A DNA stretch of 64,000 nucleotides, taken from an uncultured Psychrobacter sp. (GTDB taxonomy: Bacteria; Pseudomonadota; Gammaproteobacteria; Pseudomonadales; Moraxellaceae). Below, piece after piece: positions 7,184-60,363 of the stretch (positions are counted from its first letter, which is position 1; each line of letters opens with the position of its first letter). Below the pieces are notes generated by a model. The model was given only the letters and a program-made list of their open reading frames with translations, searched no databases and was not told the origin of the DNA. Where the stretch lies: NCBI RefSeq assembly GCF_947501045.1, contig NZ_CANMUI010000009.1. One strand, 5' to 3'. A program made the translations under genes and the position numbers.

Positions 7184-7570
7184 ATATGACTCTCCTAATA
7201 ATAAAAAGCGTTCATCTATTCTATTTATTCAAAAACAATCATAAAAAATAGATAAGCGAGTAATCTGAGTAATATCAATTATGCTGCTAATAATGGGGCT
7301 ATCTTCATGGTTTTGCAATTAGACGTTACCAAAAAACAACTACAAATAATTAACAATAATCGATTAAGTTTATGTACTCCTTTTTCATTGTTGAGCATGC
7401 CTACCTAGCAAATATCTATTTATTACTTTTACATGTTTTGATGTAACGAGTATGCATACAAATATAAACGGTAATAGACAGAAAAACCTTTTAATAATAT
7501 GCGCAGTAATGAGGGAATGCTAAAGCCATTATCTTATTTTAAAATGAATTCATTATGTAGGGATGCACAT

Positions 7571-9688: not shown

Positions 9689-11251
9689 ATGGAAGGTTTA
9701 GTTAATCTAGCAAACGGAATTATTTGGAGCCCAGCACTGGTCTATTTGTGTTTGGGCGCAGGTTTGTTTTATTCTATTTTAACGCGCTTTGTACAAGTGC
9801 GTTTATTCGGTGAGATGATTAGACTTTTATTTAAAGGTAAACCCGATAATGCGGGTATCTCATCGTTTCAGGCATTAGCCGTCTCACTCGCAGGTCGTGT
9901 GGGTATGGGTAACATCGCAGGTGTCGCCGCTGCTATTGGTTTCGGTGGTCCAGGCGCGGTATTTTGGATGTGGGTAGTGGCCTTTTTAGGCGCTTCCACC
10001 GCTTATGTCGAATCCACACTAGGTCAGATTTACAAAGAGCGCGATGTCGTCACAGGCGAGTATCGCGGTGGCCCAGCTTATTACTTTGAGCGCGCTCTTG
10101 GTCAAAAATGGTACGGTGTTGTCTTTGCCATCGCCTCTATTATTGCTTGTGGGGTGTTCCTGCCTGGCGTGCAAGCGAACGGCGTTATCAATGCAGTGGC
10201 TCAGGTCGCAGGTGAAGGTTCAGCGATAAACTTTGTAGGTATGGAAACAGGTTCGACTCGTCTTATTGCCCTAGGTATTATTTTAGTGGTTTTAGGTTTT
10301 ATCATTTTTGGTGGTATTAAGCGTATCGCAACCTTTACTGAGTATGCCGTACCCTTTATGGCAGTAGGCTATATTATCCTAGCTCTGCTTATTATGTTTA
10401 CTAACTTTAGTATGATTCCTCAAGTGTTCGGTGCGATCGTTGGCGACGCTTTTACCGCGCAAGCAGGTTTCGGTGCAGCAATTGGTTGGGGTGTCAAACG
10501 TGGTATTTACTCCAATGAGGCTGGTCAAGGTACAGGCCCTCACGCAGCATCAGCAGCTGCAGTTGATCATCCCGCGCAGCAAGGTTTGGTGCAAGCCTTT
10601 TCAGTATATGTCGATACCTTGTTAGTTTGTTCTGCGACAGCTTTTATGATCCTATCAACGGGTATGTATAACATTCAAGGTACACTAGGCGAAGGTCAAT
10701 TTATCGTCCAAAACGTCGCTGCGGATGTCGAGATCAACTCGCCATCATTTACGCAAATGGCCATGGAATCTGTCTATGGCACGTTTGGTAATACCTTTAT
10801 TGCTATTGCGGTGTTCTTCTTTGCCTTTACCACTATCTTAGCGTACTACTATATCGCTGAGGTCAACATCTCCTATCTAACCCGCTCTATGGGTAAAGGG
10901 GCCAGTAAGACTGGTCAATTTATCGTTAAATTGATTATTATGTTTATGGTCGCTTATGGTGCGCTCAATAGCTCAGGCTATATCTGGGGCCTTGGTGATG
11001 TCGGCGTTGGTCTAATGGCGTGGCTCAATATCGTTGGTATCATTATTATCTTCTTCGTTGCCCGTCCTGCTATCGACATTTTGCGAGACTATGAAGCGCA
11101 GCTTAAAGCAGGTGGCGGTACCAGTTATAAGAGATTTGTCTTTGATCCTAAGAAATTTGGTATCAAAAACGCCACTTATTGGGAAGAGCGTCATGCAAAA
11201 GAAGAAGAGCTTTTAAGACAAGAGTCGTTACGCAAAACACCTCGATCTTAG
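9689..11251 (+). CDS. alanine/glycine:cation symporter (AGCS family), paralog 2
   Basis: About 75% identical to paralog 1 over the full length (my estimate by eye). Same motifs. Confidence 0.85.
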   Translation: MEGLVNLANGIIWSPALVYLCLGAGLFYSILTRFVQVRLFGEMIRLLFKGKPDNAGISSFQALAVSLAGRVGMGNIAGVAAAIGFGGPGAVFWMWVVAFLGASTAYVESTLGQIYKERDVVTGEYRGGPAYYFERALGQKWYGVVFAIASIIACGVFLPGVQANGVINAVAQVAGEGSAINFVGMETGSTRLIALGIILVVLGFIIFGGIKRIATFTEYAVPFMAVGYIILALLIMFTNFSMIPQVFGAIVGDAFTAQAGFGAAIGWGVKRGIYSNEAGQGTGPHAASAAAVDHPAQQGLVQAFSVYVDTLLVCSATAFMILSTGMYNIQGTLGEGQFIVQNVAADVEINSPSFTQMAMESVYGTFGNTFIAIAVFFFAFTTILAYYYIAEVNISYLTRSMGKGASKTGQFIVKLIIMFMVAYGALNSSGYIWGLGDVGVGLMAWLNIVGIIIIFFVARPAIDILRDYEAQLKAGGGTSYKRFVFDPKKFGIKNATYWEERHAKEEELLRQESLRKTPRS

Positions 11252-17318: not shown

Positions 17319-20300
17319 TTATGCTAAACCATACTTTCTTTGTCTATTAATAAATGCTGGTACAGTCCCTTCTAAAACATTAATAATGTGTTGCTTGATT
17401 GTTGGGTTTTCAATAGATCCAGAAATATAAGATATCTTCTTACCAGTATCACGTTCAAACTCTGCATATATAATCTGTTCAGCATCACAAACAACTGCTA
17501 GATTAGGATTATGAGTCACCATAATGACCTGGCGTTTTTTCTTAGCCTCTTTAATTATGGGCACTAAAATATCGTAAATAGTTTGATTATCTAAGTTTTC
17601 TTCTGGCTGATCTATCAATAAAGGATTGTTAGATTTATCTAACAGCAAAAAGAGGATTAATAGCAGCTCTCCTCTTTGTCCTGGCGATAAATAGTCTACA
17701 TCAACACCATCGTACTGAATGCGATTTTGTATTTCAAGATACTCAAATGAATAAATAAAACGGAATAAATCTTCTAATCTTGCTTTGTCCTTTACAATAT
17801 TTTTTAACCTTACATCACCTAACCCATCAAGTTCTTGCAGTACATTAATAAATTTTTCAGGAAAGCTTTCAAAGCAAATGCTACCATTCTCATCAATTAA
17901 GCACTCATCAATAGTTTTATAAATATTATCAATATTTATAACCTTATGTCTTAAATTTATTAAGTTTGCAAGTCTCAATCTAAAAAAATCTTTATCAAAT
18001 TTTACATAAGCTTCAAAGTTTAGCTTAACATTAATACCTCTTGATATAATATTTTGAATTTCCTGTACAATACCGCTAAACATCTCTTCTCTTTTATATA
18101 ACTTTAAATTTATTTTATCTAAAATACTTTTAGATTCTTCTTTTATTTTTCTATTAGTTTCTTTTAAATACTCTTCATATTTTTCCAAGTTAGATGCTTC
18201 AATTTCCAACTGTTTAATTGACGAATTAGCTTTAGAAATTAATTTTTCTAGGTCGTACATCCTATTACGCTTTTCGCCTAACTCATTATTTTTTTCATTA
18301 AGAGCTTTTGATTTGATTTTATAGGCATCATTAGCTAAATTAAATTCCTCACTAACTCTAATAGCATGCTGTCTCTTAGTATTTATATCTTCTTCAATTA
18401 ATTTAATTTTTGATTGTATTAAAGCATCATCGAAATTGAAGCTGATAATCTCGTCAATAGGTATTTCAAAATCAATCAGAAATCTATTTTTAAAATCTTC
18501 TTTTTGCGCCTCATAACTTACTTTAATTCGCTTTAGTTCATCAATAGCATTTTCGAATTTCATTAATTGATTTGACAGATCAATATAAACTCCATCAGCA
18601 ACAGTTTTATGATTAAAAGCACTCATCATCTCTATATGAGCTAGCTCTACATCTTTCATTAATGGGTCATCAAGACTACCGTAAATATCAGTATTTAAAT
18701 CTTGCATTTCATTGCTAGCTTTCTCTAGTTTTTCACGTTCAAGAGCCAAACTATTATTTATTTTAACCTCGTTTTCTGATGTAGTTTTATTTAAATAACT
18801 AACTATCTCACTACTTATCAACTCAATCCTACCTTTAATATCCAAGATATCTTTATTAATGGTTCTTTCGTCTTGGCTAATAAATGCATTATAGTCGTTG
18901 TTACCTAAAACTTTATCACTTGGTACATGACTAAAAACAATACTGTTAATTTGGCTCTGAAATGCGTTACTACTTAAGTCGCTACATAGCTCTTCAAAAT
19001 AACCTTGTGGAATATAAGTAATTCTATCTTTTACATTTGCATCGTTTTTACACAAGTGTGATTCCAAGTTTTCAGAATTACTCATAAAATCCAAATTTAC
19101 TTTATAATTACTGCCAATATTCAATGTGTCAAATTTTTTGACAAAATTGTTGTATTTAATATCTGTTTTGTCTTCGAACACGTGTGAAATAATATCTATA
19201 AATGCACTTTTACCACTACCTTTGTTTCCAATAATGGCTACTAAGTCACTATTTAATTTTTGTTCTATATTTTCGAACCACTCTCCAGCTGTTTCTGAAC
19301 TGTGATTACTAATACAGACTCTGTCTAAGTATTTTTCTGAATTACCTTCAATGGCTTTCAATTTGTCTGGTTTATCGCCTATAAAAGACCTATTTGAAGG
19401 CTCTCTAATAGCTTGTAATAAACCTTCGAAGGTAGTGTCAGCTTTTATCCAGGTTTTATTATTACCAGGAAATACTGCATACCCTCTATCTTCTCCACTA
19501 GTTTTGAACCTATGAGCATCGCTACCCCTTACTGCCAAACAAGGTTTATCTCCTAAGCAGTATTGAAACTCCTTCAAAAAATTTTTGTTATTATCTGTTT
19601 CTACATTTTGAAAAGTTAAAGCTTCTTCTTGATTTTTAACCTCAAAGATGTTAGCAAATTTCATTAGTTTGAAAACGTACTGATAGTTATCTTTTGAAAA
19701 ACTAGTCGCTCCTCCATGAGTACTCCAAGCTAAATACGGAACTGCCCTATCAGGATACATATTTACTGCTTTCTCCCAAGATTCAACAGTTACTTCAGCT
19801 TTCTCCTTACTAGCAGTTAAAGCATCTTCGTCATTTTTCTTGACATCGCCTTTAACATCTTTAGTATTACTATCAGGTAATTTACGTATATATTCAATTA
19901 AAGACTTATTCGATAATGGCTTATCTATTAAATCAAGAATTAGGTTACTCTTAAAATCACTTAAATCAGTAATACTTATATCATTAGAGAAAACTACATG
20001 AGCATTCAATCTAGGTAGTTTTGATGAAGATAGTCTAAGTTCGATTCCAGGGAAAACTACTTTATTTAATTTTGGTGAATTAGGCATGTCTAATCTATTT
20101 TTTAATGCTATCCAGCCATCAAATGTAAAGTAATCCATCAATACGAAAACATCAGCATCTGCTTTGTTCAAAGCTTCAATCATCTCATCAATAATCTCTA
20201 TGTCTACTTGAGTATTCAAATTGGGGTTATTTAGCTTACGACTACCTCTCCAATTAAACGAAGCAGGTGTGTGTACATGAAAATCCCAAACCCTCCACTC

Positions 20301-20327
20301 TGAACCTCTTTGAAATTCTTGTTCCAT
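17319..20327 (-). CDS. PHP-domain phosphoesterase fused to SMC/Rad50-like ABC ATPase with long coiled coil (Ppl/TrlF-like candidate anti-phage protein)
   Basis: N-terminal PHP motifs (WDFHVHTP ... GSDAHRF). Walker A GNKGSGKS. About 330 aa of K/E/N-rich coiled coil. C-terminal ABC signature LSPGQRGE, Walker B LLIDQPEENLD and H-loop VTHN. About 28% GC against 45-50% in flanks. Confidence 0.7.
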   Translation of the reverse strand: MEQEFQRGSEWRVWDFHVHTPASFNWRGSRKLNNPNLNTQVDIEIIDEMIEALNKADADVFVLMDYFTFDGWIALKNRLDMPNSPKLNKVVFPGIELRLSSSKLPRLNAHVVFSNDISITDLSDFKSNLILDLIDKPLSNKSLIEYIRKLPDSNTKDVKGDVKKNDEDALTASKEKAEVTVESWEKAVNMYPDRAVPYLAWSTHGGATSFSKDNYQYVFKLMKFANIFEVKNQEEALTFQNVETDNNKNFLKEFQYCLGDKPCLAVRGSDAHRFKTSGEDRGYAVFPGNNKTWIKADTTFEGLLQAIREPSNRSFIGDKPDKLKAIEGNSEKYLDRVCISNHSSETAGEWFENIEQKLNSDLVAIIGNKGSGKSAFIDIISHVFEDKTDIKYNNFVKKFDTLNIGSNYKVNLDFMSNSENLESHLCKNDANVKDRITYIPQGYFEELCSDLSSNAFQSQINSIVFSHVPSDKVLGNNDYNAFISQDERTINKDILDIKGRIELISSEIVSYLNKTTSENEVKINNSLALEREKLEKASNEMQDLNTDIYGSLDDPLMKDVELAHIEMMSAFNHKTVADGVYIDLSNQLMKFENAIDELKRIKVSYEAQKEDFKNRFLIDFEIPIDEIISFNFDDALIQSKIKLIEEDINTKRQHAIRVSEEFNLANDAYKIKSKALNEKNNELGEKRNRMYDLEKLISKANSSIKQLEIEASNLEKYEEYLKETNRKIKEESKSILDKINLKLYKREEMFSGIVQEIQNIISRGINVKLNFEAYVKFDKDFFRLRLANLINLRHKVINIDNIYKTIDECLIDENGSICFESFPEKFINVLQELDGLGDVRLKNIVKDKARLEDLFRFIYSFEYLEIQNRIQYDGVDVDYLSPGQRGELLLILFLLLDKSNNPLLIDQPEENLDNQTIYDILVPIIKEAKKKRQVIMVTHNPNLAVVCDAEQIIYAEFERDTGKKISYISGSIENPTIKQHIINVLEGTVPAFINRQRKYGLA

Positions 20328-20506
20328 AGATACCGTCTCTAACTATTAAGCTTTTAGTTAATCATAATTTTAAGAATTGATCAGTTTATTGATTTATATA
20401 CAAAAATGCAACTGAACTGTTAATTTTAGTTCATTAATAATTACAGCCGAGTTACAACAAACTTAGCAGTAATGCTACCTTTATCTTCCTTCTCTAATAA
20501 TATCAA

Positions 20507-20548
20507 GTTAGAAAACGTGGTGATTTTCATTGTCTTAATTTTAGCTTA
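20507..20548. repeat. direct repeat S1 (GTTAGAAAACGTGGYGRTTTTCWATTGTCTTRATTTTRGCTTAG), copy 1 of 2
   Basis: About 85% identical to S2 at 21126-21168. Overlaps the stop of the diverged DUF2256-like ORF. Confidence 0.5.
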
Positions 20549-20734
20549 GTCCATCTTACACCGCAGACAACGCTCTAAACAATAAGTCTCTTTATTTCGC
20601 TGATAAGGTAGATATTTTATGAAATTGGTGCGCTGGGCGCAGCCTACGCCAAATTTTGCAGTGCATATGCTATTTGAAGGCTTATTTTTTGTAGGTTGGT
20701 GTCGAGGCACGAGACCCAACAATTTATAAATCAA
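20546..20734 (-). pseudogene. diverged or degenerate DUF2256-like small ORF (possible pseudogene)
   Basis: N-terminal KNKPSNSIC and C-terminal YCLERCLRCK resemble the intact neighbour ([10 protein letters not shown] ... [10 protein letters not shown]). The first CxxC is disrupted. Confidence 0.3.
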
Positions 20735-20745
20735 AAATATATAAT

Positions 20746-20809
20746 CGGTGGGTTACGCCTTGTCTGCATTCTCTGCGAGAATTTGACAAGTCTAACACCA
20801 CCCTACTTC
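20746..20809. repeat. 64-bp imperfect palindromic repeat R1
   Basis: CGGTGGGTTACGCCTTGTCTGCATTCTCTGCGAGAATTTGACAAGTCTAACACCACCCTACTTC. Nested inverted arms (CTTGTC/GACAAG, ATTCTC/GAGAAT, GGTGGGTTA/TAACACCACC). Three copies within 0.8 kb. Confidence 0.6.
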
Positions 20810-21125
20810 AAACGTTAGTTTACCAGCCAAGTCAAAGTTAGAAAATTAAGCAATATTGAATAACGACTATTATTAGCAAGGATACGATGTTGCCGTTAGC
20901 CCTGATTGTAGCGGTTATCCTTGGTTGACCACTAGATTGCGGTGACTTAGCTAGGAGCGATATCGAGGCAACAGGAACGCTACTGGCTATTAGTCACCGC
21001 TCTAGTGGGCGACCAAGATATGAGCGAAAAGCAGGATTGGCTACTTACTACTTTTTAGGTTCTAAATAAGCTATAATCATTTTAACAGCACCGCCGCCTC
21101 TACCTTCTTCAGCTGGCAACATTGG

Positions 21126-21168
21126 GTTAGAAAACGTGGCGGTTTTCTATTGTCTTGATTTTGCTTAG
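21126..21168. repeat. direct repeat S2, copy 2 of 2
   Basis: See S1. Confidence 0.5.
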
Positions 21169-21216
21169 GTCGCATAGAGTTGGTCATTTAACATTTAGAT
21201 TTAGCATGATTTAAAA

Positions 21217-21280
21217 CGGTGGGTTACGTCTTGTCTGCATTCTCTACGAGAATTTGACAAGTCTAACGCCACCCTACTTC
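21217..21280. repeat. 64-bp imperfect palindromic repeat R2
   Basis: About 94% identical to R1. Overlaps the stop codon of the DUF2256 gene. Confidence 0.6.
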
Positions 21281-21414
21281 CTTTTCGCCCGCCGACACCG
21301 CTCAGAACAATAAACCACATTATCCCAATCCTTCTCCCATTTCTTACGCCATGTAAAAAGTCGCTGGCAGACAGGGCATATTTTCTGGGGTAGATTTTGT
21401 TTTTTGTGTGCCAT
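21274..21414 (-). CDS. DUF2256-type zinc-ribbon protein (46 aa: [46 protein letters not shown])
   Basis: Matches the DUF2256 pattern (CPVC...FxWRKKW...YCSERCRR). The real start is the internal ATG of the 86-aa track ORF. Confidence 0.7.
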
Positions 21415-21441
21415 GGTAATGTCTCTTATTTGATTAGAAGT

Positions 21442-21458
21442 GGTGCGCGGGGCGCACC
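21442..21458. promoter_or_regulatory. 17-bp perfect dyad GGTGCGC-GGG-GCGCACC (7-3-7), 28 bp upstream of the DUF2256 start
   Basis: Read from sequence. Same GGTGC...GCACC 7-3-7 geometry as two dyads upstream of the 2091-aa gene. Confidence 0.4.
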
Positions 21459-21510
21459 TTACACGCCACAAACTTTTAAATAGAATTTTTCGTTGCAGAA
21501 TATATAAAAA

Positions 21511-21574
21511 CGGTGGGTTACGTCTTGTCTGCATTCTCTACGAGAATTCGACAAGCCTAACACCACCCTACCTC
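21511..21574. repeat. 64-bp imperfect palindromic repeat R3
   Basis: About 90% identical to R1/R2. Lies 19 bp downstream of the stop of the 2091-aa gene, so it may also act as its terminator hairpin. Confidence 0.6.
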
Positions 21575-21592
21575 ACTTTTTTAATGAGTTAA

Positions 21593-24500
21593 CTACTCAT
21601 AATTATCAAATATTTTATTAAGCCGATTTAAGCTATTGACGATAAGCTTGCCCGATTGGTCGGTGCTGGTGTCGAGGGCGAGTTTTTCATCCATACGCAT
21701 ATTGAGCGGTTCTAGCGCTTGCTTAAGCGCGTTTGCCAAGAGCGCGGTTTGTTCCGTGATGTCGGGGATGTCGGTCTTAGAAGTTTGACTCTCAGCACTC
21801 TTAAACAGGCTATCGGCCATCTGCTGCGCCAGTTGCTCGACCGCGCTGACCAATTGCACCATGAGCTGCTTTTGGATATCTTGGTTTTGCTTGAGGTACT
21901 CCCCTTCTGCTTTATGGTCGTGCTTATAGATTTGTATCAGCTGGTTCATGCTTTTCTCAAAGCCGTTATCGATGCTGTCGCTAACAACTTTGGCGTTGTC
22001 TACAAAACCCGTGATAAAGCTGTCGGCGAGGATTTTTTGCGCCTCAAGCTGGGCATCGATTTGCGCTTGCTGTTCAGCGCCTCGCAAGTGGGCGATTTGT
22101 TCAGGGTCATTTTGGTTAAGGTATTTATCAAACTGACTACTAATAGCATTGAAGCCGCTGGCTAGGTCAACGAGCTGCGCGACGATACGTGCACCAGTGT
22201 CGCCATCTTCCCCGCCCATGGCTTTGTTACGTAAAAAGTCAGCTTTGATTTGCTCCCAGCGCTCTTTTTCTGTCTCCGTTAAGACATTACGCATCTCGCC
22301 AAGCTTAAGTAAGTTACTCTCTGCACCTTGGGTTAATAGCTGCGACTCGCCTAGATAGTGATCATCTACCAGCTGGTTCAGCTCTTGCGCATTCATGACC
22401 GCCGATAGCTTTTCGGTCATCTTATTCATATTACGGTAACTGCCTTGCAGCTTAAATATCGGCTCGACGCGATATTTATCATCTTGCGAAGCCGAGGCGA
22501 TGTAAGCTTGGTTGACGTCAAGGATGACTTCTTGCACGGTAAACATATGGCGCAAGATGGCGATAATTTCGTTAATCTCTGAGGTGCTATAAGGATAAGT
22601 CAGGTCGCTTGCTTGCGCGAGACTTTCGCTATTGGAACCGACGGCTTTTGCCATTTTTATGAGGCGATGGACGTCGCTCAAATCACGGTTGGCAAGTGGC
22701 GCGAGAACTTTGTTTGACGTCAACGAGTTTTCGATATAACTGAGCGCAAAGACTTCTTCCATACCGCTCATGATGTCGCCTAAGTTGTAGATGTCGGCGC
22801 GGTTGGCGAGCATGTCAGGGACTTTAAAGGCCTCACCGCTTTCGGTGTACGGGTTACCCGCCATGACCACGCAGAACTTCTTGCCACGCATATCATAGGT
22901 TTTGGTTTTGCCTTGCCAGACGCCGTCGATACGGCGTGTACCATCGCCAAGTGAGATAAACTTCTGCAAAAATTCGGCATGAGTATGCTGGATATCGTCC
23001 AGATATAGCATGACATTATTGCCCATCTCAAAGGCTAAGTTGATTTTATTCAGCTCTTCTCTAGCAGTGGCGTTGGGCGCTTTTTCGGGATCTAAAGAGG
23101 TGACGTCATGACCGAGGGAAGGACAATTAATCTTCATAAAGATGAGGCCAAGACGGTTTGCCACATACTCCATCAAGGTGGTTTTACCGTAACCTGGTGG
23201 CGATATCATCATCAGGATACCCATCGGATCGGTACGTTTATCTTCGCCGACCGTGCCCATTTGCTTAGCAAGGTTGTCGCCGATTAACGGCAGATAGCTC
23301 TCATTAATCAGACGGTTACGCACAAAGGATGACAGTGGACGTGGCATAAACTCATCCAATCGCAATGATTCTTTTGAGTCGTGCAATATCTCTGAGCGCA
23401 TGGCTAGATAGCGTCTGTAGGCAGGAATGACCTGTGTGTCATGATGGTGCAAACGATTTAAGAAATCATCGACAGCAAAGGTCAAAGTCTGCTGATGAAT
23501 GCGCTCATGTTCGCCTAGTAAGTTATTGACTTGTATTTCAAGCGACACTTTACCTATGCTGCGCTCAAAGCTCTGTACTTGATTGAGCGGATTATTGAGA
23601 CTGGTCAATGAGGTAGTGGCTGAGAATGACAAAGTAGACGGCGTGCCAGTAGCGCTCTTATCAAAGCTAATACCTGAGTCAATGAGACGTTGCACCAAGG
23701 CTTCACGTTGCCCATCATTTAATTGGGTGAGTAAGACCGCAATCGCTTCGGGCACATAGTGGCGGCCAATCTGCAATTGCTGTCTACGTAAGGCGGACTT
23801 TTCCTCAATTTCAGCAAGCTGTTCTTCACTGAGTGGTTTGCCTTCACTATCAGTACTATCTAATGGCTTATTGATTGTTTCGCTATCGCCATAGGTCTTA
23901 TCCAATAGCGCATGAAACCACGTTGCCAATAGCTCATAGGCTGATTTGGGCTGAAAGCCAAGTTTGCCGATTGAGGATCGTAATTGCTCAAAACTGGCAG
24001 CGTTCTGCGTACTGCCTGACGAACTATTTAGCGTTTGCGTCAGCTGCTCGCACAACTGCTGCGCTTGCTGACTGGTTTGCCATTCTATTTCTGTATTTGT
24101 GCCAGTACTTATGCCTGCATTTGGGCTACTCGCCTGCCCCATGACACTGACCAAGTATTCACTGGCAAGCTGAACGTAGCTTTGTTTAAAGATATTGGCG
24201 TTGTGAATGTCGCTGATGTCTAAATTCAGGTCTGAGCTGGAGTTGGATTCTGAGCCTAAATCTGAATCTGACTTCTTATTAGAATTGTTCTCGAGGCTAA
24301 TACTGTCGTTACTAAAGTTATCATCATTATAAGCAGAGACAAAGTTATGCATAACCTCCGTCATATCTTCTACTAGCAAGGCTTTGGCGGTATCACTACC
24401 TAAGCTACGACGCAATTGCTCGGCGGTGATGGCTCTATCCGTCCAGTTACTCACGCGCGTTAGTACGGACTCATTTAGCCAGTTATCGTAACCAAATTGA

Positions 24501-27500
24501 CGTAATCCATTTAAACCGAGTGCTTTTACTAGGCTCAACTGCCAATAGAACAGCTGCGCCAACGCACGTACTTGCGGGGTATAAATGAGCAAGCCAGCTT
24601 CGCGCAAAGTCGGTAGTATTTGCAGCAATAGCAATGTTGCATCATGGTCATGAATGCCTTTGTCATAACCGAGCTGATAACGTGGTGTGGCGTAAGCTTT
24701 GACCAGTTTGGCAAGAGGGCTATCATCGATGTCGCCATTACTATCAATAGTGCTACTAACACTGCTATTAATAGTACTAACAGTGTCGTCATAAGCTTGA
24801 TATAGGCGCGACTCGGTCAAGCCATCTTGACTGTTTTTGGCACTTTCGATAATGCTATACGCTAGGTATTCGGCGCGGTAGACGGTATCGGACTCGGAGG
24901 CGATGTTCATATCCCAATACGGACGCAAAGCGTTTAATTCGGCATTGTCCAATACTTCATAATAATCTGTGCCCGTTAAATGCAGATTAAGGACGCGTTT
25001 GCCGTCTGTCTGCCCACGACTTAGTAAGGTCAAATCCAATGGCTGAGTATTGACCGAAAAGCGGTGCTTGCCAAGCTTGATGATTTGACCACCATCTTCA
25101 AACAAATCTGACTTGTCTTTTAGGCTCTTATAACTCTCGATTTGAATGGCTTTTAAGCGCGCATCAATATCATCTGCTTTGACACTAAAGCCTAATGTTA
25201 GCAGCTCTTTGGCGATGCTACGAACTTTTTGCACTAGGCCATCTGAGGCAAAGTAAGTATTTAAAGCTTCTTCCTCTGTGAAGCCTGTTACGCCTGTGCT
25301 TTGCGTGCGTTTTTTGATGCTCTCCAGCATACGTAGTGCGCCATCACCTAAGTTTTGTGCCTTACGGTTGCGGGCATCGAGCAATTGCTGCTTATGATTT
25401 TCAAAGGTTTCGTAAATCTCTTCACGCTTGCTGATAATGTCGGCTAAAAACTGATCGCCACTATTAGTCTCTGGGTCAGCAAACTGGCTCTCTAACTCTT
25501 CTAACTGCACCAGCAATTTTGCCATTTGCTCATCTGACTTCTCAGGCGTATTGGCAATGGATAAAGCATTGGCAATGGATTGACCAAACAGTTTAAATTG
25601 CGCGCCAAATTGCGCCACGGCTTCAGCTGAGCCTAAGCTTTTACGTTTATGATTTAGCTTAGCTTTACTTTGATTGAGACTCGCATAGATGGTCGAGATG
25701 TCATCGATAATTTGCGTGCGTACCGTGGCATCGGCGACGTCTAGTGTACCTAGCAGCTCGGTCAACAAGTCTAAACCTTGAGCGGTCTCATCGATTTTTT
25801 CTAATACTGGCTTGAGCTCGGCATTGGTCTCGCTCGTATTTAAACGCTCACTAACATCTGCTAACACCCCTTCGTAGCTTGATAGCGCCTCTTCACCACT
25901 TAGAAATAGTACGGTTTTTTCGGCAAGCTCGCTCTCTGCTGCTTCTAGTTGTGTTTGTAGCGCTACTAATTTATCGCTATCTAAATAACGTAAATCTTCC
26001 AAGCTGACCAAGCGGCCTTTTTGCCGTCTTAACGCCGACAATTGATCAACATAGTCACTGGCCGACTCAAAAGTAGTGACTCTTATCTGCCGCAATATTT
26101 CATTCTGCTGGGCTTCAGCATCGGCTATAGCGGTTTGAGTTTGCTTTTGAATACTTTGTACTTTGGCAAATTCATCAATGACCAGCTCAGCAGTGGCCGT
26201 CACCTCTTTGATACTACCTGCAATCTCGGTCAGCTCAGGTTCAGATAGCCAATAATAGCTATCAAAGAGACGGCTAGTATTGTCGGCTAATTCTTCATAG
26301 AGCTTTTGTGACACGCTTTGATTGTCAATGAGGCGGGTGATGCTATAGAGATCTGAGATGCCGCGCACCAATTCTTTATTGCCAATTTTGCCATAGAAGC
26401 TCGTGCTTTCAGGTAATTCACTGACATACTCAGGAGAGGCATAAGGGGTATGCCATATCTGCATCGGGTGAATGCGTGATGGTTCACTTTGGGCGCTGAA
26501 CAGTACCAAGCGACCATTTTCTGCCAGTGCCATACCATTACAATAAATGGGGTTTGCCAGTTGTTTTTTGATAAGGTTATAAGGGAATAACCCCGTGATG
26601 CCCAACGCCACGTCATAGAATAAGAATAAAACGTCTTCGCCGTTGGGTGAGACGATTTTACGCTTAAATTGTAAGTTCTTTTCATTGCCATTATTGGCAT
26701 CGACGTTCTGAGCATCAAACAGTTTATGTTCGCCAGTTTGCAAGTAATAACCGCCCGGGAAGATAATGCCGTGATCTTCGGGTAGCTGGACACAAGATTG
26801 GCCGATGGCATCCAGTCGCAGCACTTCTTCAGTCAAGGTGTTGTAGACGAAATAGCGATGACTGTCTTCACGATACGGCAAAATCTTTAACAATATTAAA
26901 CTACCAACTTTGGCATAAGAAATCTCAGCATCTGTCAGAGATTGCGTACTATCACTAACGGGTTCGCTATAAATTCCTAGCCCTGATTGAGTATTATCTT
27001 CAATTTTAATGGTCAAACTGCCGCTAACAGTTTCTACAAATATCGTATCTAAGATATTCATATGCGGGTATTTGCCATTGATCATCTGATCACGAGTAGT
27101 CTCAGTCCAATCAAAATCATAGGCTGGCGGCAACTCGATATCGCGCTCACCTCTATTATCTACATAGGCGACTTGGGCGGATTCTGGTGTGCCTTCGCTA
27201 AAGTCTAGGGCAAAACGAAACACTCGAATATCGGTGATACGTTCACCGATCTGAAATGCTAATAGCAGCTTGCTGTCTTTAACGGTCAGTTGAATCAAGC
27301 GCGTTTGCTTGTAATATCTATACAGCTCATTAAAGTCTTGTACAAAGGCTTGTTGATCTAAAAATGTGCCCGTTAAATCGACCTCTTCAAGCTGGTAGTC
27401 TTTCTCAACATCGTTACTGTTATTATCAGGCTTCGTATTATCAGACTCTATCAAACGATACAACGACAGCACATCTTTGACATTGCTCGCGCGTTTAAGA

Positions 27501-27868
27501 CCCATAAAGACGTTGTAGCCGAATAGCAAATAGCCACCGACCTGCACCATATCCTGCGCCACACAGTTGTGTTCGGTGCGAATACGAGTACGAGCTGTCA
27601 CTTGCATTTGAGTGCTACCAAACTCTTCAAGACGCGCGTTATTCAGGGTAGCGGTCTGTTGCTCTAAACGGCTGCCCTGCTCCGTTAGACGTTTTTTGAT
27701 GAGCTCATAGGCATTGCCGGCGGCAACAGCCTGATCAGTTTGACCGGTTTGTTCAGCTTGATTGGCTTGGCTATCGTTGCTTGGGCTATCTGAATTGGTT
27801 GAGTTTTGCGTATCCGCCATCGTGAGTCGTCCACTTCTGTTTTTATATAATAAGAGAGTTTTGCGCAA
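21593..27868 (-). CDS. giant (about 2090 aa) coiled-coil protein with internal MoxR/dynein-type (AAA_5-like) AAA+ ATPase domain; function unknown
   Basis: Walker A SPPGYGKTT. Walker B VMLYLDD. Sensor-1/MoxR signature FCVVMAGNPYTE...VPDMLANRA (compare MoxR ATQNP.E...LPEA.LDRF) at about aa 1500-1700. Long E/Q/L-rich helical stretches before and after. N-terminal 500 aa unrecognised. First codon is TTG; the first ATG is 48 nt downstream (27820). Confidence 0.6.
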   Translation of the reverse strand: MRKTLLLYKNRSGRLTMADTQNSTNSDSPSNDSQANQAEQTGQTDQAVAAGNAYELIKKRLTEQGSRLEQQTATLNNARLEEFGSTQMQVTARTRIRTEHNCVAQDMVQVGGYLLFGYNVFMGLKRASNVKDVLSLYRLIESDNTKPDNNSNDVEKDYQLEEVDLTGTFLDQQAFVQDFNELYRYYKQTRLIQLTVKDSKLLLAFQIGERITDIRVFRFALDFSEGTPESAQVAYVDNRGERDIELPPAYDFDWTETTRDQMINGKYPHMNILDTIFVETVSGSLTIKIEDNTQSGLGIYSEPVSDSTQSLTDAEISYAKVGSLILLKILPYREDSHRYFVYNTLTEEVLRLDAIGQSCVQLPEDHGIIFPGGYYLQTGEHKLFDAQNVDANNGNEKNLQFKRKIVSPNGEDVLFLFYDVALGITGLFPYNLIKKQLANPIYCNGMALAENGRLVLFSAQSEPSRIHPMQIWHTPYASPEYVSELPESTSFYGKIGNKELVRGISDLYSITRLIDNQSVSQKLYEELADNTSRLFDSYYWLSEPELTEIAGSIKEVTATAELVIDEFAKVQSIQKQTQTAIADAEAQQNEILRQIRVTTFESASDYVDQLSALRRQKGRLVSLEDLRYLDSDKLVALQTQLEAAESELAEKTVLFLSGEEALSSYEGVLADVSERLNTSETNAELKPVLEKIDETAQGLDLLTELLGTLDVADATVRTQIIDDISTIYASLNQSKAKLNHKRKSLGSAEAVAQFGAQFKLFGQSIANALSIANTPEKSDEQMAKLLVQLEELESQFADPETNSGDQFLADIISKREEIYETFENHKQQLLDARNRKAQNLGDGALRMLESIKKRTQSTGVTGFTEEEALNTYFASDGLVQKVRSIAKELLTLGFSVKADDIDARLKAIQIESYKSLKDKSDLFEDGGQIIKLGKHRFSVNTQPLDLTLLSRGQTDGKRVLNLHLTGTDYYEVLDNAELNALRPYWDMNIASESDTVYRAEYLAYSIIESAKNSQDGLTESRLYQAYDDTVSTINSSVSSTIDSNGDIDDSPLAKLVKAYATPRYQLGYDKGIHDHDATLLLLQILPTLREAGLLIYTPQVRALAQLFYWQLSLVKALGLNGLRQFGYDNWLNESVLTRVSNWTDRAITAEQLRRSLGSDTAKALLVEDMTEVMHNFVSAYNDDNFSNDSISLENNSNKKSDSDLGSESNSSSDLNLDISDIHNANIFKQSYVQLASEYLVSVMGQASSPNAGISTGTNTEIEWQTSQQAQQLCEQLTQTLNSSSGSTQNAASFEQLRSSIGKLGFQPKSAYELLATWFHALLDKTYGDSETINKPLDSTDSEGKPLSEEQLAEIEEKSALRRQQLQIGRHYVPEAIAVLLTQLNDGQREALVQRLIDSGISFDKSATGTPSTLSFSATTSLTSLNNPLNQVQSFERSIGKVSLEIQVNNLLGEHERIHQQTLTFAVDDFLNRLHHHDTQVIPAYRRYLAMRSEILHDSKESLRLDEFMPRPLSSFVRNRLINESYLPLIGDNLAKQMGTVGEDKRTDPMGILMMISPPGYGKTTLMEYVANRLGLIFMKINCPSLGHDVTSLDPEKAPNATAREELNKINLAFEMGNNVMLYLDDIQHTHAEFLQKFISLGDGTRRIDGVWQGKTKTYDMRGKKFCVVMAGNPYTESGEAFKVPDMLANRADIYNLGDIMSGMEEVFALSYIENSLTSNKVLAPLANRDLSDVHRLIKMAKAVGSNSESLAQASDLTYPYSTSEINEIIAILRHMFTVQEVILDVNQAYIASASQDDKYRVEPIFKLQGSYRNMNKMTEKLSAVMNAQELNQLVDDHYLGESQLLTQGAESNLLKLGEMRNVLTETEKERWEQIKADFLRNKAMGGEDGDTGARIVAQLVDLASGFNAISSQFDKYLNQNDPEQIAHLRGAEQQAQIDAQLEAQKILADSFITGFVDNAKVVSDSIDNGFEKSMNQLIQIYKHDHKAEGEYLKQNQDIQKQLMVQLVSAVEQLAQQMADSLFKSAESQTSKTDIPDITEQTALLANALKQALEPLNMRMDEKLALDTSTDQSGKLIVNSLNRLNKIFDNYE

Positions 27869-27931
27869 TAAGAAAAGGTGAGAAGGTTAAATGTGGCTAG
27901 TCTAAAGAAACGTTTTATAAATTATAGGTAG

Positions 27932-27948
27932 GGTGCTTTTTAAGCACC
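27932..27948. promoter_or_regulatory. 17-bp perfect dyad GGTGCTT-TTT-AAGCACC (7-3-7), upstream of the 2091-aa gene
   Basis: Read from sequence. Confidence 0.4.
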
Positions 27949-28025
27949 TAAAAGCCATGAAAAAGCACTGCCGCGTTCAGCAATGAAAATCTTTTAAATA
28001 AGACTTTCTATTATCACACTATCAT

Positions 28026-28042
28026 GGTGCATGGAATGCACC
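28026..28042. promoter_or_regulatory. 17-bp perfect dyad GGTGCAT-GGA-ATGCACC (7-3-7), upstream of the 2091-aa gene
   Basis: Read from sequence. Confidence 0.4.
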
Positions 28043-28165
28043 CTACGACAATTCATAGTAAGTCATGTATATAAAACATTTTTTTAGAGTAGCCAACTCA
28101 GTGTTTTAAGTTGGCTTGGAAATCTGCCACCTAAGCAACAGATTTTTTATTGATATTTAAAACGA

Positions 28166-30124
28166 CTAATCGTTATATTGAGCAGTCTTATTAGACTCGT
28201 TAGCTTTAGTCATAACTTGACCTGCCATAACCGTATTGATGATACCGCTTAGCGTGTCAGACTTGCCAGCTAAGCCATCAATGGCTTTACCGATAGAGAG
28301 TGACTTAGCGAAGTTATCAAAGAAGTGCGCTTCACCGCCGACAATATCGATTTTGGCTTTTTGGAGCGCCACTGCCAACACTTCAGCGTTTTCTTTAGCA
28401 ATCTCTTTGCCCGCATCGATCGACGCCATCGCTTCTTGCAATGCAGTCTCAAGACTCATGCGGAACTCTTCATGCTCACGTGCTTCCTTGCTCATGCTAC
28501 CCATGGCATTGAACTTCTCGACCAGACCATCGGCCTCAGCTTGGAAGTGCGCGCGGGTAACTTCAGCTTTTGCCAGTCCAACTTCACGTTCTGCTTTGGC
28601 ATTCGATTCACCGCGAGCGGCGATAATCTCCGCATCTGCCATGCCTTTTTCACGCTCTGATTGCGCTTCAGCTTGTCCAGTCGCTTTAATAATATTGGCT
28701 TTAGCAATGCCTTCTTTTTCCAAAGAGCTTGCTTTGGCTTCTTGAATCGCTGCTTCAGCAAACCCATGAGCAGACTCTTCAGCTTTGATACCCTCGGCAA
28801 GCTTGATTTTAGCTTCTGACTCTTTGGCAGACGCTTCAAGATTGGCAGTGGCAAGCGTGGTGATCTCAACCGCTTTATGCTTGGCAGACAGCTCTTCTGC
28901 TTCCGCCTTTTTCACCTGACGCACTTTGATTTCTTCAGCATCCGCTTCGGCAGCCAATACGCGTGTTTGCTTGGAGCGATCCGCTTCACTGACTTCGCGG
29001 ACTTCTTTGATACGCTCTTCTTCTTGCGCAACAGTTTTATCTACCGCAATACGCTCACGAATCACGTTAGCGATTTCTTTTTTCTCAACTTCAATCGCAC
29101 GTTCCGCTTCGATACGCTGTAAGTCGACTTCACGCTCACGAGAGACGATTTCTAAATCACGAGCACGAATGACTTTCTCTTCTTCAATGACGACAGCACG
29201 CAGACGGTTCTGTCCAGCCACTTCAATTTCACGTTGCTGATTCTCACGCTGAATCGCCAAATCTTGCTCAACCATAATGACAGCTGTTTCCGATTTTTTA
29301 CGCTCTTCTTCTTCAATCTTGCGGGTTTCAGCAGTCTCACGTGCAATTACAGAAGAGATTTCACGTTGCTGTTTGGCTTCGGCATCGGCTTGTTGACGCT
29401 CAAGCTCCAGCATAGCTTCCCTAGTTTCAACGTTTTTCTTCTTAACCGCTAGCTCTTCATCACGCTCAAGCTCGTTAGTGATGACATTTTGAAAGGCCGT
29501 TAATTGAGTAATCTTTTTGATACCTTCAGCATCCAAGATATTACTAGAATCTAATGACGCTTTTGGCGTTTGCTCTAAGTAATCAATTGCGACGTCTTCT
29601 AGGACATAACCATTGAGATCGTTGCCAATTTCTTGGACGATACTGTCACGAAATTCGCTGCGGTTCTCAAATAGCTTAACGAAATCAATTTGCTTACCGA
29701 CTGTTTTTAGCGCTTCTGAGAACTTGGCATTAAACAGCTCATTGACAGCGACTTTATCTGAGGCTCTTTCAACCCCAACCGATTTGGCGACTTTGAGGAC
29801 ATCCTCTTCGGTCTCGTTAACTCGCAGGTAAAACGCAACGGTGATATCAGCGCGCATGTTGTCGGCGCAAATCAGCCCTTCTTTACCGCGTCTATCCACT
29901 TCTAAAGTGATAAGCGAGATTCTCATCAATTCTTTTTTGTTGATAATGGGCCAAACGAAACCACCATCAAAGCGTACAGCGATTTTACTAACACCATTAA
30001 TAATCAGTGCTTTGCCTTGCTCAACCTTAAAATAAAAGGCTTTTAGCATCAAAAGTGCTGCCATGATGAAAACAAACGCCAGCACTACAACCACGCCGAC
30101 GATAATGAGTATGTCCATATTCAT
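28166..30124 (-). CDS. yqiK: flotillin-family SPFH (band-7) protein, YqiK-like
   Basis: N-terminal TM. SPFH core (KALIINGVSK...FVWPIINKKELMRISLITLEV...ADITVAFYLRV). About 400 aa of E/A/K-rich coiled coil, typical of bacterial flotillins. Confidence 0.8.
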   Translation of the reverse strand: MNMDILIIVGVVVVLAFVFIMAALLMLKAFYFKVEQGKALIINGVSKIAVRFDGGFVWPIINKKELMRISLITLEVDRRGKEGLICADNMRADITVAFYLRVNETEEDVLKVAKSVGVERASDKVAVNELFNAKFSEALKTVGKQIDFVKLFENRSEFRDSIVQEIGNDLNGYVLEDVAIDYLEQTPKASLDSSNILDAEGIKKITQLTAFQNVITNELERDEELAVKKKNVETREAMLELERQQADAEAKQQREISSVIARETAETRKIEEEERKKSETAVIMVEQDLAIQRENQQREIEVAGQNRLRAVVIEEEKVIRARDLEIVSREREVDLQRIEAERAIEVEKKEIANVIRERIAVDKTVAQEEERIKEVREVSEADRSKQTRVLAAEADAEEIKVRQVKKAEAEELSAKHKAVEITTLATANLEASAKESEAKIKLAEGIKAEESAHGFAEAAIQEAKASSLEKEGIAKANIIKATGQAEAQSEREKGMADAEIIAARGESNAKAEREVGLAKAEVTRAHFQAEADGLVEKFNAMGSMSKEAREHEEFRMSLETALQEAMASIDAGKEIAKENAEVLAVALQKAKIDIVGGEAHFFDNFAKSLSIGKAIDGLAGKSDTLSGIINTVMAGQVMTKANESNKTAQYND

Positions 30125-30328
30125 TCCTCTAATTAAAACATTCCAACCAAATTTAAAACAGTTGCTACAATGCCTGCCAATAGATTACTTATCGTTTATA
30201 CATTGCCCGATCGTTATTACATTTTCATTTTTAAGTTCAATTTTTACTCAAAAATCGCTTTTGCAAGCTACCCAGTTAAAAATACTTTTGTGTGAAGGTT
30301 CTTCAATTAACCCATTCAATTTTTAGCG

Positions 30329-30985
30329 TTATTTATCTTTAACAGGAGCAACTAGGTAAACATTGGCTTCATTTAGATATTCTACCAATACCACTTTGTC
30401 GCCTTGCTTTAATGAATTCTCATTCATGTCTGGACGAATTTTGAGTATTAATCCTGCGCCGCCGTCATTTAGCTCAGCTTCACCATGTTTATCTGTCACA
30501 CTAAGCGTGCGCACTATGGCTGTCTTACCCACATTACTAATGGCATTACGCTTAGGAATTTTGGCGATGTTTTTACGGATGGGTGAAATAATAACCCCCG
30601 TCAACCACATCGATACCACCAATACAAAAATGAGCGCCCCTGTGCCAAACACATAATACAAAACGCCTGAATCAAAATAGTGATGCAAAAAGCTGGTGTA
30701 GAGATAGCTTAATACCCAACCGATTAAACTAATCAAGGTTAGTATGATGATTAAAGGCACGCCATAAAGGCCAAATTTGAGCATAAGACCTGTAAAAAAT
30801 CCGGTCGATGATAGGTTGGAGACATCAGCATCACCGCCTGATTCACCAAACTCTACGGTGTCCATATCTGTCATGCCGAGTAAAGATACTACCCAATACA
30901 AGGTGACAAACATCACCAGCCCTGTAAACACAAAGGTAGGGTATAAACTTATTTTGGTAATAAAAATCAAAAACGATTCTTGCAT
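30329..30985 (-). CDS. yqiJ: NfeD-like membrane protein (YqiJ/YuaF-like) with C-terminal OB-fold
   Basis: Four or five predicted TM helices followed by an NfeD-type beta-barrel tail (GKTAIVRT...GDKVVLVEY...VYLVAPV). The canonical partner gene sits immediately upstream of the flotillin gene. Confidence 0.6.
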   Translation of the reverse strand: MQESFLIFITKISLYPTFVFTGLVMFVTLYWVVSLLGMTDMDTVEFGESGGDADVSNLSSTGFFTGLMLKFGLYGVPLIIILTLISLIGWVLSYLYTSFLHHYFDSGVLYYVFGTGALIFVLVVSMWLTGVIISPIRKNIAKIPKRNAISNVGKTAIVRTLSVTDKHGEAELNDGGAGLILKIRPDMNENSLKQGDKVVLVEYLNEANVYLVAPVKDK

Positions 30986-60156: not shown

Positions 60157-60230
60157 TGGAGCGGGTGGCGGGAATCGAACCCGCGTCATTAGCTTGGAAG
60201 GCTAAGGTGTTACCATTATACCACACCCGC
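60157..60230 (-). tRNA. tRNA-Gly (anticodon TCC), copy 1
   Basis: Reverse complement GCGGGTGTGGTATAATGGTA...CCTTCCAAG...GGTTCGATTCC...CCA. Confidence 0.85.
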
Positions 60231-60289
60231 AATAACTCAAACTGTCGTGATGAATGATTAGATAATGGTTTAAAATTCTATTACATATA

Positions 60290-60363
60290 TGGAGCGGGCG
60301 GTAGGAATCGAACCCACGTCTTTAGCTTGGAAAGCTAATATGTAACCACTACACTGCACCCGC
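60290..60363 (-). tRNA. tRNA-Gly (anticodon TCC), copy 2
   Basis: Reverse complement GCGGGTGCAGTGTAGTGGTTA...CTTTCCAAG...GGTTCGATTCC...CCA. Confidence 0.8.

Follow-up and report, generated by a model that had tools for sequence, protein, structure and literature searches.

A palindromic repeat array in Psychrobacter, read as a cluster of GTAG-tagged REPs of a RAYT family

The detailed study of an array of palindromic repeats in Psychrobacter leads us to read its three nested palindromes (R1-R3) as GTAG-tagged repetitive extragenic palindromes (REPs), which represent the long-loop form of the REP family belonging to the single REP-associated tyrosine transposase (RAYT) of Psychrobacter. We give this reading a probability of about 0.85. 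The array, which lies in the 64-kb stretch of DNA that we analysed as a whole (the window), would then be a cluster of REPs (three R copies together with X, T1 and T2) superimposed on an old partial duplication of a DUF2256 unit, and standing beside a separate structured element, F, with its S tail. The features are as follows:

20508-20550, plus strand: S1, a diverged copy of S2, within a partial segmental duplicate made up of spacer, S, the 3' end of DUF2256 and T
20546-20622 (ORF 20546-20734), minus strand: decayed 3' fragment of DUF2256, the CxxC N-terminal half being absent
20627-20647, minus strand: T1, a short GC-rich GTAG REP (GTAGGCTGCGCCCAGCGCACC) upstream of the DUF2256 remnant
20691-20720, plus strand: X, a second-type GTAG-tagged REP (GTAGGTTGGTGTCGAGGCACGAGACCCAAC) and partner of R1
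20747-20806 (core; 64-bp unit 20746-20809), minus strand: R1, putative long-form GTAG-tagged REP
20894-21042, plus strand: F, an imperfect hairpin of 149 nt that matches Rfam Flavo-1 (RF01705) and has a 74-nt apical extension, between R1 and S2
21127-21169, plus strand: S2, conserved segment from the tail of the F unit, with a weak A/U-rich hairpin ahead of a U-rich run
21218-21277 (core; 64-bp unit 21217-21280), minus strand: R2, putative long-form REP directly behind DUF2256
21274-21414, minus strand: intact DUF2256 gene, 46 aa (Pfam PF10013, E 7e-23)
21442-21462, minus strand: T2, a REP of the T1 type whose tag is degenerate (GTAAGGTGCGCCCCGCGCACC), lying between R3 and the start of DUF2256
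21512-21571 (core; 64-bp unit 21511-21574), minus strand: R3, putative long-form REP behind the 2091-aa gene
21593-27868, minus strand: 2091-aa gene (DUF3686, DUF7902, AAA), with R3 behind its 3' end
27928-27948, plus strand: left member of a T-type REP doublet (GTAGGGTGCTTTTTAAGCACC), upstream of the 2091-aa gene
28026-28046, minus strand: right member of the same doublet (GTAGGGTGCATTCCATGCACC)

The three 64-bp repeats lie exactly where the original prediction had put them, and they are slightly more alike than the roughly 90-94% identity that it gave, with pairwise values of about 95% (95.3% for R2 against R1 and 95.1% for R2 against R3). A search of the 64-kb window brought up no copy beyond R1-R3, with 0 matches expected from shuffled sequence. 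Each repeat is a nested palindrome of 60-64 bp with a core bounded by GGTGGGTTA and CCACCCTAC; on the minus strand R1 runs GTAGGGTGGTGTTAGACTTGTC...GACAAGGCGTAACCCACC, and the 3' flanks of R2 and R3 continue with GUUUUAAA and GUUUUUAUAUAU, respectively. Folding gave a strong three-tier hairpin for every copy on either strand (dG of -24 to -30 kcal/mol; z of -3.6 to -5.5). The stop codon of the intact DUF2256 gene, which R2 had been said to contain, is indeed the TAG inside the GTAG tag of R2, and R3 is as close to the 2091-aa gene as claimed, except that the distance from the stop codon is 18 nt to the end of its 64-bp unit, rather than 19, and 21 nt to the start of its GTAG tag. This tag is invariant in 16 of 16 aligned R copies (the plus strand in the window reading ...CCACCCTAC), and across these copies 96.9% of the stem cells are paired, compared with 41-47% when the partners are slid, with compensatory changes in three pairs. 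The strand that keeps the G-U pairs is the minus strand, which is also the one bearing GTAG. The tag on all R copies, the X, T1 and T2 hairpins and the element F had gone unmentioned in the earlier description.

RAYTs are IS200-like HUH/Y1 enzymes, and R is found beside such a gene in two species. R appears as the long-loop form of a 31-nt REP, GTAGGGTGGGTTAGCnnnGCGTAACCCACC, which flanks RAYT homologues. In the conspecific MAG GCA_947497775.1, the RAYT P0125 shares a 440,871-bp contig with the syntenic locus, at a distance of approximately 380 kb, and is flanked by R at 9920-9980 and 10568-10628 of locus L025 and by an inverted 31-nt REP at 10649-10679; it matches the E. coli TnpA-REP structure 4ER8 with an E value of 5e-42. 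In the second species (L010), positions 2393-2926 encode a RAYT (NCBIfam NF047646, 179.8 bits against a cutoff of 80, E 2.7e-53; Pfam Y1_Tnp, 26.4 bits), and R stands on both sides of it, ending 20 nt before the ATG and starting 31 nt after the stop codon. At both loci the RAYT-flanking R pair is direct and not inverted, the short REP being the inverted partner. RAYT homologues with 62-76% identity bear inverted GTAGGGTGGGTTAGCnnnGCGTAACCCACC flanks; those at L011 and L013 have the canonical inverted short REPs, and L017 and L022 add long nested forms. By analogy with E. coli TnpA-REP, the GTAG strand, folded as single-stranded DNA, would be the substrate that RAYT binds and cuts, and its action on this strand would spread the REP family and keep the copies uniform. 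The HUH motif reads H-I-P in the window's species, as compared to H-I-H in 8 of 8 other aligned homologues, and present-day mobility in the window's lineage is therefore doubtful.

We compared R with known REPtrons, namely E. coli REP/BIME with TnpA-REP (YafM, 4ER8), Pseudomonas REP/REPIN and Stenotrophomonas SMAG (Nunvar 2010, PMC2817692; Di Nocera 2013, PMC3733652). GTAG REPs have a GT(A/G)G head, flank RAYT genes, are located downstream of genes, form head-head dimers 20-100 bp apart and can have long self-complementary loops (PMC2817692, PMC3733652), which reach 27 bp (PMC3733652). R shares with these systems the 5' GTAG, the imperfect palindrome, copies directly beside RAYT, an extragenic and mostly gene-downstream position, head-head doublets 20-100 bp apart, coexisting subtypes, variants with a long self-complementary loop, and G-T pairs on the GTAG strand. 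There are also clear differences: the host genus, Psychrobacter (Moraxellaceae), is outside both catalogues (PMC2817692, PMC3733652), R is about 60 nt long instead of the usual 20-40 and seemingly low-copy under the strict pattern, the RAYT-flanking R copies are direct with an inverted short REP, and the RAYT of this species has H-I-P for HUH. While R is thus outside the REP size range of 20-40 bp, the related short REP has 31 nt and GTAG families include long loops; we therefore read the size as a variant and not as an exclusion. A description of R as a REPIN (two fused REPs) was rejected, as R has a single GTAG tag and a 3' end without CTAC.

Beyond this locus, the R stem pattern matched Psychrobacter only in an exact-pattern scan of 185,579 species genomes, and R had 0 occurrences among the 72,556 plasmids of a plasmid collection. 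The unit is not peculiar to the array: it was found in at least eight unrelated contexts, in almost every case immediately after a gene (the 2091-aa gene, DUF2256, a GMC oxidoreductase, RAYT, a methyltransferase, a 386-aa gene, a 190-aa ORF, a 147-aa ORF and DUF2971). GTAG falls on the coding strand of the immediately preceding gene in 8 of 9 independent contexts; one copy, orthologous in L003 and L009, is antisense to the adjoining gene. Classical REP families have hundreds of copies. For R, the strict stem pattern gives 1-2 exact matches per Psychrobacter genome (the complete DM8 genome has both at this locus), and GTAG hairpins of all subtypes number about 45 in 169 kb of a biased sample. 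The proposal of a species-specific REP family that could double as terminators is thus largely correct, given the RAYT flanking and the unrelated loci, and has to be widened in range, which is genus-wide.

The more general idea of a dispersed REP- or MITE-like unit was borne out by the several unrelated Psychrobacter loci and by a presence that varies between species. R2 has orthologues that follow DUF2256 in L005 and L008 and a methyltransferase gene in L006, and R3 is present in L004 and L007. L008 is without R3 and T2, its DUF2256 starting 15 nt after the stop codon of the big gene, and in L006 an X-type REP replaces R1 in the same slot. The species differ at this locus by the gain, loss or swapping of REPs. 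A clean empty site or excision footprint was not found, L008 and L006 differing from the window beyond the element; the L001 and L002 MAG loci are 100% identical over the array and therefore uninformative on its evolution.

R is accompanied by five further GTAG hairpins around the 2091-aa gene, consisting of X, T1, T2 and the doublet at 27.9-28.0 kb. R1 and X form a head-head doublet with a gap of 26 bp, and L006 has a 100% identical copy of X, whose partner is a further X-type REP. X-type REPs are also found directly 3' of F in at least six metagenome loci. The T2 orthologues in L004 and L007 have a proper GTAG (GTAGGGTGCGCCCCGCGCACC), and the T doublet, which is head-head as well, recurs at L025 (~7640-7702). 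A generic GTAG-plus-hairpin scan of the window was too noisy (132 hits compared with 118 ± 10 in shuffles) and was therefore replaced by the GTAGGNTG head plus folding. Rfam contained no match for R, S, X or T.

The DUF2256 micro-genes, originally described as duplicated, come down to one real gene and one remnant, which keeps the last ~20 codons only (YCLERCLRC vs YCSERCRRA) and whose ORF gave no Pfam hit. The direct repeats S1 and S2 do exist, with 89% identity over 36 nt, without being an independent dispersed repeat family: S2 belongs to the conserved tail of F, and S1 comes from local segmental duplication. F, spacer and S are also found together in L005, L006 and L036. S was rejected as a structured element, its hairpin being no more stable than shuffled sequence and broken in L006. 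It had further been suggested that R2 was inserted between gene and S, and in one of the two units only. The 113-nt indel between units A and B does start exactly at the GTAG of R2; it runs 52 nt past the 3' end of R2, and insertion and deletion are indistinguishable. PADLOC gave no hit on the 218-, 652- and 2091-aa genes.

Since the GTAG tag at this locus is on the strand that codes for the preceding gene, the mRNA would end in a hairpin of -24 to -30 kcal/mol followed by a U-rich run. The tails after the R hairpins are GUUUUUAU, GUUUUAAA and GAUUAUAU, the first belonging to R3 and the second to R2, in each case after a strong bulged hairpin; a simple terminator scan was silent at R because the stems are bulged. 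Judging from this anatomy, R3 probably serves the 2091-aa gene, and R2 DUF2256, as a terminator or 3' stabiliser.

The element F scores above the Flavo-1 gathering score of 42 in the window (47.7 bits), in L005 (49.5 bits) and in L006 (48.7 bits), and eight metagenome copies reach 43-53.6 bits. It is dispersed in at least 13 contexts, is intergenic at gene 3' ends, exists in short and long forms, often adjoins GTAG REPs and was absent from the plasmid collection. Its copies show strong covariation, most of them with an apical extension of ~74 nt that covaries and has an invariant GGAA loop, and they are strand-asymmetric (55 G-U vs 15 A-C cells). Many have a promoter-like 5' extension, which begins at ~20858 in the window, and a candidate 3' terminator. 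The ERIC/IRU and YPAL repeats of enterobacteria are likewise long intergenic palindromes; F resembles them as an imperfect palindrome of ~150 nt, in its place at gene 3' ends and in its short and long forms, and differs from them by its strand asymmetry and by the lack of sequence similarity. With Flavo-1 (RF01705; Weinberg 2010, PMC2864571), F shares the basal stem and both conserved internal loops, the multi-copy state and the orphan status. The key distinctions are that Flavo-1 is from Bacteroidetes and F from a gammaproteobacterium, and that F adds the apical extension, the GTAG REP neighbours and, in many copies, the promoter-like extension and terminator. In Flavobacterium psychrophilum, Flavo-1 hits fall outside transcripts or coincide with them in sense or antisense orientation (PMC9723704).

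A tentative proposal, to which we give clearly less than even odds, is that F and the S tail constitute a transcribed multi-copy sRNA family, homologous to the orphan Flavo-1 and placed beside REP/RAYT in Psychrobacter. Such an sRNA would be transcribed from a conserved promoter-like box of its own (TTGAAC-N16-TGTAAGAAT), or as the 3'UTR of a gene directly in front of it, and would end at its own terminator, of which the S repeat would be one version. In the window, the predicted transcript would start on the plus strand at ~20885 (GATGTTGCC) and end at S2; a simple promoter scan returned no plus-strand promoter before F. A role of F as a CsrA-type sponge was considered; F has just two conserved GGA motifs, and the idea remained speculation.

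Other explanations of R have to be weighed against a RAYT-linked REP family. It is unlikely that R is merely a set of locus-specific terminator hairpins, arisen by local segmental duplication and vertical descent without a transposase. Units A and B do resemble an old tandem duplication, R1 and R3 share a TATATAT 3' flank, hairpin and U-run are on the gene strand, the HUH motif is damaged in the RAYT of this species, and the strict-pattern copy number is low. However, the 60-nt element is present at both RAYT ends, far away on the conspecific contig and again in a second species, it stands behind at least eight unrelated genes, and GTAG, for which a terminator has no need, is kept in all copies. 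Moreover, R is ~95% identical while the adjoining DUF2256 duplicate has decayed beyond Pfam recognition. Less probable again is that R2 is the 3' module of one long ncRNA of ~385 nt on the plus strand, made of F, S and R. This would fit the F-spacer-S2-spacer-R2 block, kept at 82-91% in the window, L005 and L006, but these three loci are syntenic, and the conservation of the block can therefore be simple common descent. L036 apparently has F, spacer and S without R, the 500 nt that follow yielding neither R nor a GTAG REP; most F copies are without R and most R copies without F; and the G-U-keeping, GTAG-bearing strand of R is the minus strand, opposite to F.

The two remaining alternatives would assign R to other mobile systems. 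A classical MITE derived from a DDE-type insertion sequence, with TIRs and target-site duplications, is very improbable, in spite of the TIR-like terminal arms (GGTGGGTTA / TAACCCACC) and of a presence that varies between species. None of 16 copies is flanked by direct repeats, the flanks differing freely, so that the search for target-site duplications came back negative; in addition, the GTAG is asymmetric, at one end only, RAYT is the only transposase associated with R, and R is not among the plasmids scanned. We see next to no chance that the array is a degenerate integron-like cassette array with R as attC sites after promoterless small ORFs. This idea, raised in the original prediction, drew on same-orientation small ORFs with an imperfect palindrome near each, a likeness that R does have to attC, and it fails on several grounds. 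In sequence, the R copies agree at ~95%, whereas attC sites have structure, and not sequence, in common; R carries the GTAG tag and flanks a Y1/HUH transposase, not a tyrosine recombinase; an integrase domain was found in 0 of 8 neighbouring ORFs scanned; there is a single real gene among the 'cassette' ORFs, the other being a fragment; and R also lies behind the 2091-aa gene and, elsewhere, ordinary housekeeping genes.

In conclusion, our results explain an odd array as a probable cluster of REPs, and as a result on palindromes this is mostly housekeeping, F being the more interesting by-product. Psychrobacter (Moraxellaceae) would join the lineages with a documented GTAG-REP/RAYT pair, with both short and long-loop REP forms, and the gain, loss and swapping of REPs is seen at a variable spot that hosts defence-type genes. 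For annotation, the array is not an integron and the DUF2256 fragment is not a gene. The H-I-P RAYT provides a natural test of whether REPs persist once their transposase has been disabled. With F, a Flavo-1-type structure, hitherto an orphan motif of Bacteroidetes, is found in a gammaproteobacterium, and its covariation and candidate signals make its function more approachable. If the sRNA proposal is true, the array would in part be an sRNA gene decorated with REPs, and Flavo-1 would be a cross-phylum element with a testable transcription unit.

The three R repeats lie exactly where the original prediction placed them, and they are the only R sites in the 64 kb, whether sought with a 28-nt probe (≤3 mismatches) or with the arm pattern GGTGGGTTA-N-TAACNCCACC, for both of which shuffles expect 0; no fourth copy was found in the window. 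R2, which as predicted holds the stop codon (TAG) of the DUF2256 gene, shares 95.3% identity with R1 and 95.1% with R3. Every copy forms a three-tier hairpin on both strands (dG -24 to -30 kcal/mol, z -3.6 to -5.5), with GTAG immediately ahead of the palindrome on the minus (gene) strand. This tag is a hallmark of the GTAG REP superfamily and of the substrates of RAYTs, the REP-associated tyrosine transposases (PMC2817692; PMC3733652). In a 16-copy alignment, 96.9% of stem positions are paired, versus 41-47% with slid partners, and three stem pairs show compensatory changes.

The decisive evidence for the identity of R is its link to a RAYT gene. L010, a locus of an uncultured Psychrobacter, has a gene of 178 aa that matches NCBIfam NF047646 ("REP-associated tyrosine transposase") at 179.8 bits (cutoff 80) and clears Pfam Y1_Tnp too; one R stops 20 nt short of the start codon of this gene, the next starts 31 nt past its stop, and a third lies 0.7 kb beyond the latter. 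The window's species has the same gene (P0125, WP_367108557.1), on a single contig with the conspecific copy of this locus and ~380 kb from it, where it is bracketed by R (L025 9920-9980 and 10568-10628) and then by an inverted 31-nt REP; its product matches the solved E. coli TnpA-REP structure (4ER8) at E 5e-42. RAYT homologues from other assemblies (62-76% identity) have inverted GTAGGGTGGGTTAGCnnnGCGTAACCCACC copies at their flanks, and ~58-nt nested forms accompany two of these homologues as well. Because short inverted REPs and nested forms flank these homologues, we conclude that R is the short REP whose loop was swapped for an additional 30-nt hairpin, of the same kind as the long self-complementary loops already known in GTAG families (PMC3733652). 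As a whole, the array is a cluster of REPs, a well-known kind of element. Within the REP cluster of one RAYT homologue, an IS110-family transposase gene (L017 1684-2676) stands directly 5' of the RAYT gene. In the window's species the metal-binding HUH motif of RAYT is H-I-P (DHIPTIW; L025 10001-10540; P0124 and P0125, from two independent MAGs), versus H-I-H in 8/8 other aligned homologues; the catalytic Tyr is kept. Judging from these residues, the H-I-P RAYT may be inactive as an enzyme, and the REPs of this species may no longer be mobile.

A scan of 185,579 species, one genome each, with the three R stem segments as query returned 8 loci, all in Psychrobacter; this strict pattern, which counts exact stem segments, gives just 1-2 copies per genome. 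In BLAST searches of the retrieved loci, R copies lie behind the 2091-aa gene, DUF2256, a GMC oxidoreductase gene, the RAYT gene itself, a SAM methyltransferase gene, a 386-aa gene adjoining lplA, ORFs of 190 and 147 aa, and a DUF2971 gene. In 8/9 independent R contexts the GTAG strand is also the one that encodes the nearest upstream gene. On this strand GUUUUUAU (R3), GUUUUAAA (R2) or GAUUAUAU (R1) comes after the hairpin. A consensus scan called no terminator at R1-R3. The orientation and 3' tails fit a terminator or 3'-stabiliser role, in which hairpin and tail would serve the upstream gene.

The comparison with integron cassettes and attC sites, which had been raised for this array, does not hold, since R copies have kept their sequence, bear the GTAG tag and accompany a RAYT, and the eight neighbouring ORFs contain no integrase domain. 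A classical MITE, the other mobile unit considered, is rejected by the lack of target-site duplications and by the absence of R from plasmids (no copy in the plasmid collection). A purely local duplication of a terminator is contradicted by the R copies beside the RAYT gene and beside various unrelated genes.

Beyond R, the REP cluster includes further hairpins: 7/9 of the window's GTAGGNTG words fall in the spacers that flank the 2091-aa gene on its two sides, and each of the seven heads a hairpin.

R1, R2 and R3 (minus): GTAGGNTG-headed hairpins
20691-20720 (plus): X, GTAGGNTG-headed hairpin, forming a head-head dimer with R1 (26 bp gap)
20627-20647 (minus): T1, GTAGGNTG-headed hairpin
27928-27948 and 28026-28046: head-head doublet of GTAGGNTG-headed hairpins
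21442-21462 (minus): T2, eighth GTAG-type hairpin, in the R1-R3 spacer; tag degenerate (GTAA), GTAG in L004 and L007

The doublet combines two distinct T-type REPs (GTAGGGTGCTTTTTAAGCACC, GTAGGGTGCATTCCATGCACC) into a REPIN-like pair, and the species has it both at window 27928-28046 and at L025 ~7640-7702. The S1/S2 direct repeats are real (plus strand), as proposed, and weaker than R (89% over 36 nt). Unit B (spacer, S1, remnant, T1, X, R1) arose long ago by partial duplication of unit A (spacer, S2, R2, DUF2256, T2, R3); the indel between them that covers R2 is 113 nt, beginning at R2's GTAG and extending 52 nt beyond R2. The locus varies between species across L004-L008: L008 is without R3 and T2, and its DUF2256 starts 15 nt past the stop of the 2091-aa gene; L006 has an X-type REP at the exact slot of R1 and a methyltransferase gene separating DUF2256 from R; L005 has neither the three-gene cluster nor the 1002-aa gene. 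Two MAGs carry the same locus, 98.2% identical to the window across 17.4 kb. The 1281-nt array (window 20320-21600) is 100% identical in both of these MAGs (L001/L002), although ~17 differences would be expected.

The intact DUF2256 gene (21274-21414, minus; 46 aa) matches PF10013 at E 7e-23. Its supposed second copy (20546-20734) has no Pfam match and keeps just the C-terminal YC.ERC motif, a remnant rather than a gene. As seen at L004 5048-6546 and L007 3698-4082, Psychrobacter sp. DM8 has three DUF2256 paralogues with 61-93% aa identity to the window's, and the retrieved part of PP-21 contains two or more. Since most of these paralogues adjoin REPs, we conclude that the micro-gene has been duplicated repeatedly at this locus.

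Among the neighbouring genes, the 1002-aa SMC/ABC-type ATPase gene (17319-20327, minus) has ~30% GC (window ~43%) and matches the PADLOC "Ppl" defence model at E 8e-26. At its site, L005 lacks the gene, F abutting metH, and L006 has the end of a type-I-restriction-S-like ORF; the site resembles a variable hotspot for defence genes, with REPs at its borders. A three-gene cluster (21593-30985, minus; 218, 652 and 2091 aa, the last with DUF3686, DUF7902 and AAA), without PADLOC matches, has REPs at either end and is missing from the syntenic site of L005 and L006. Elsewhere in the window are tandem paralogues (7499-9115 and 9689-11251, plus; 538 and 520 aa; ~77-80% DNA identity, 2118-bp period) and an adjacent tRNA-Gly(TCC) pair (60157-60363, minus; 84% identical) within a Thr-Gly-Gly-Tyr-Thr tRNA cluster.

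Inside the array coordinates of the original prediction lies an element that it missed, F, which matches Rfam Flavo-1 (RF01705) at 20894-21042 (plus; 47.7 bits, gathering score 42), its terminal loop being enlarged by a 74-nt insertion.

Window 20858-21169 (plus): whole F unit with 5' extension and S tail
L005 2149-2297 and 6656-6804, plus a third: F copies (one of the three partial)
L006 409-555: F copy
L013 3457-3613: F copy
L026-L054: F copies in metagenome loci

Scanning metagenomes with the F 3' motif yielded 29 loci, whose 26 full-length copies group into 13 flank clusters, and F is present in at least 13 contexts; 8/20 rescanned loci pass the Flavo-1 threshold, on the same strand every time. 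The long form is 150 nt and the short form (L049) 83 nt. In a 26-sequence alignment, 22/34 consensus pairs show compensatory changes, and the basal loops and apical GGAA are invariant. The paired cells include 55 G-U versus 15 A-C, which favours the plus strand of F as the folded strand. F avoids divergent spacers, and the 3'-side gene is convergent on it in 19/21 cases. About half of the copies, the window's included, have a conserved ~45-nt 5' extension resembling TTGAAC-N16-TGTAAGAAT, a promoter-like box; those without it are mostly behind a same-strand gene, five at just 15-38 nt. On their 3' side many copies have a terminator-like end of canonical form, and several an X-type REP. In the window, L005, L006 and L036 the F tail is made of spacer and S, which explains S2; the fold of the S hairpin is not significant. 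F is a structured repeat of a gammaproteobacterium that resembles Flavo-1, to which the literature assigns no function and whose matches in Flavobacterium psychrophilum are reported to be sense, antisense or outside transcripts (PMC9723704; PMC2864571). While the REP cluster itself is of little interest, F is the part of the array that deserves follow-up.
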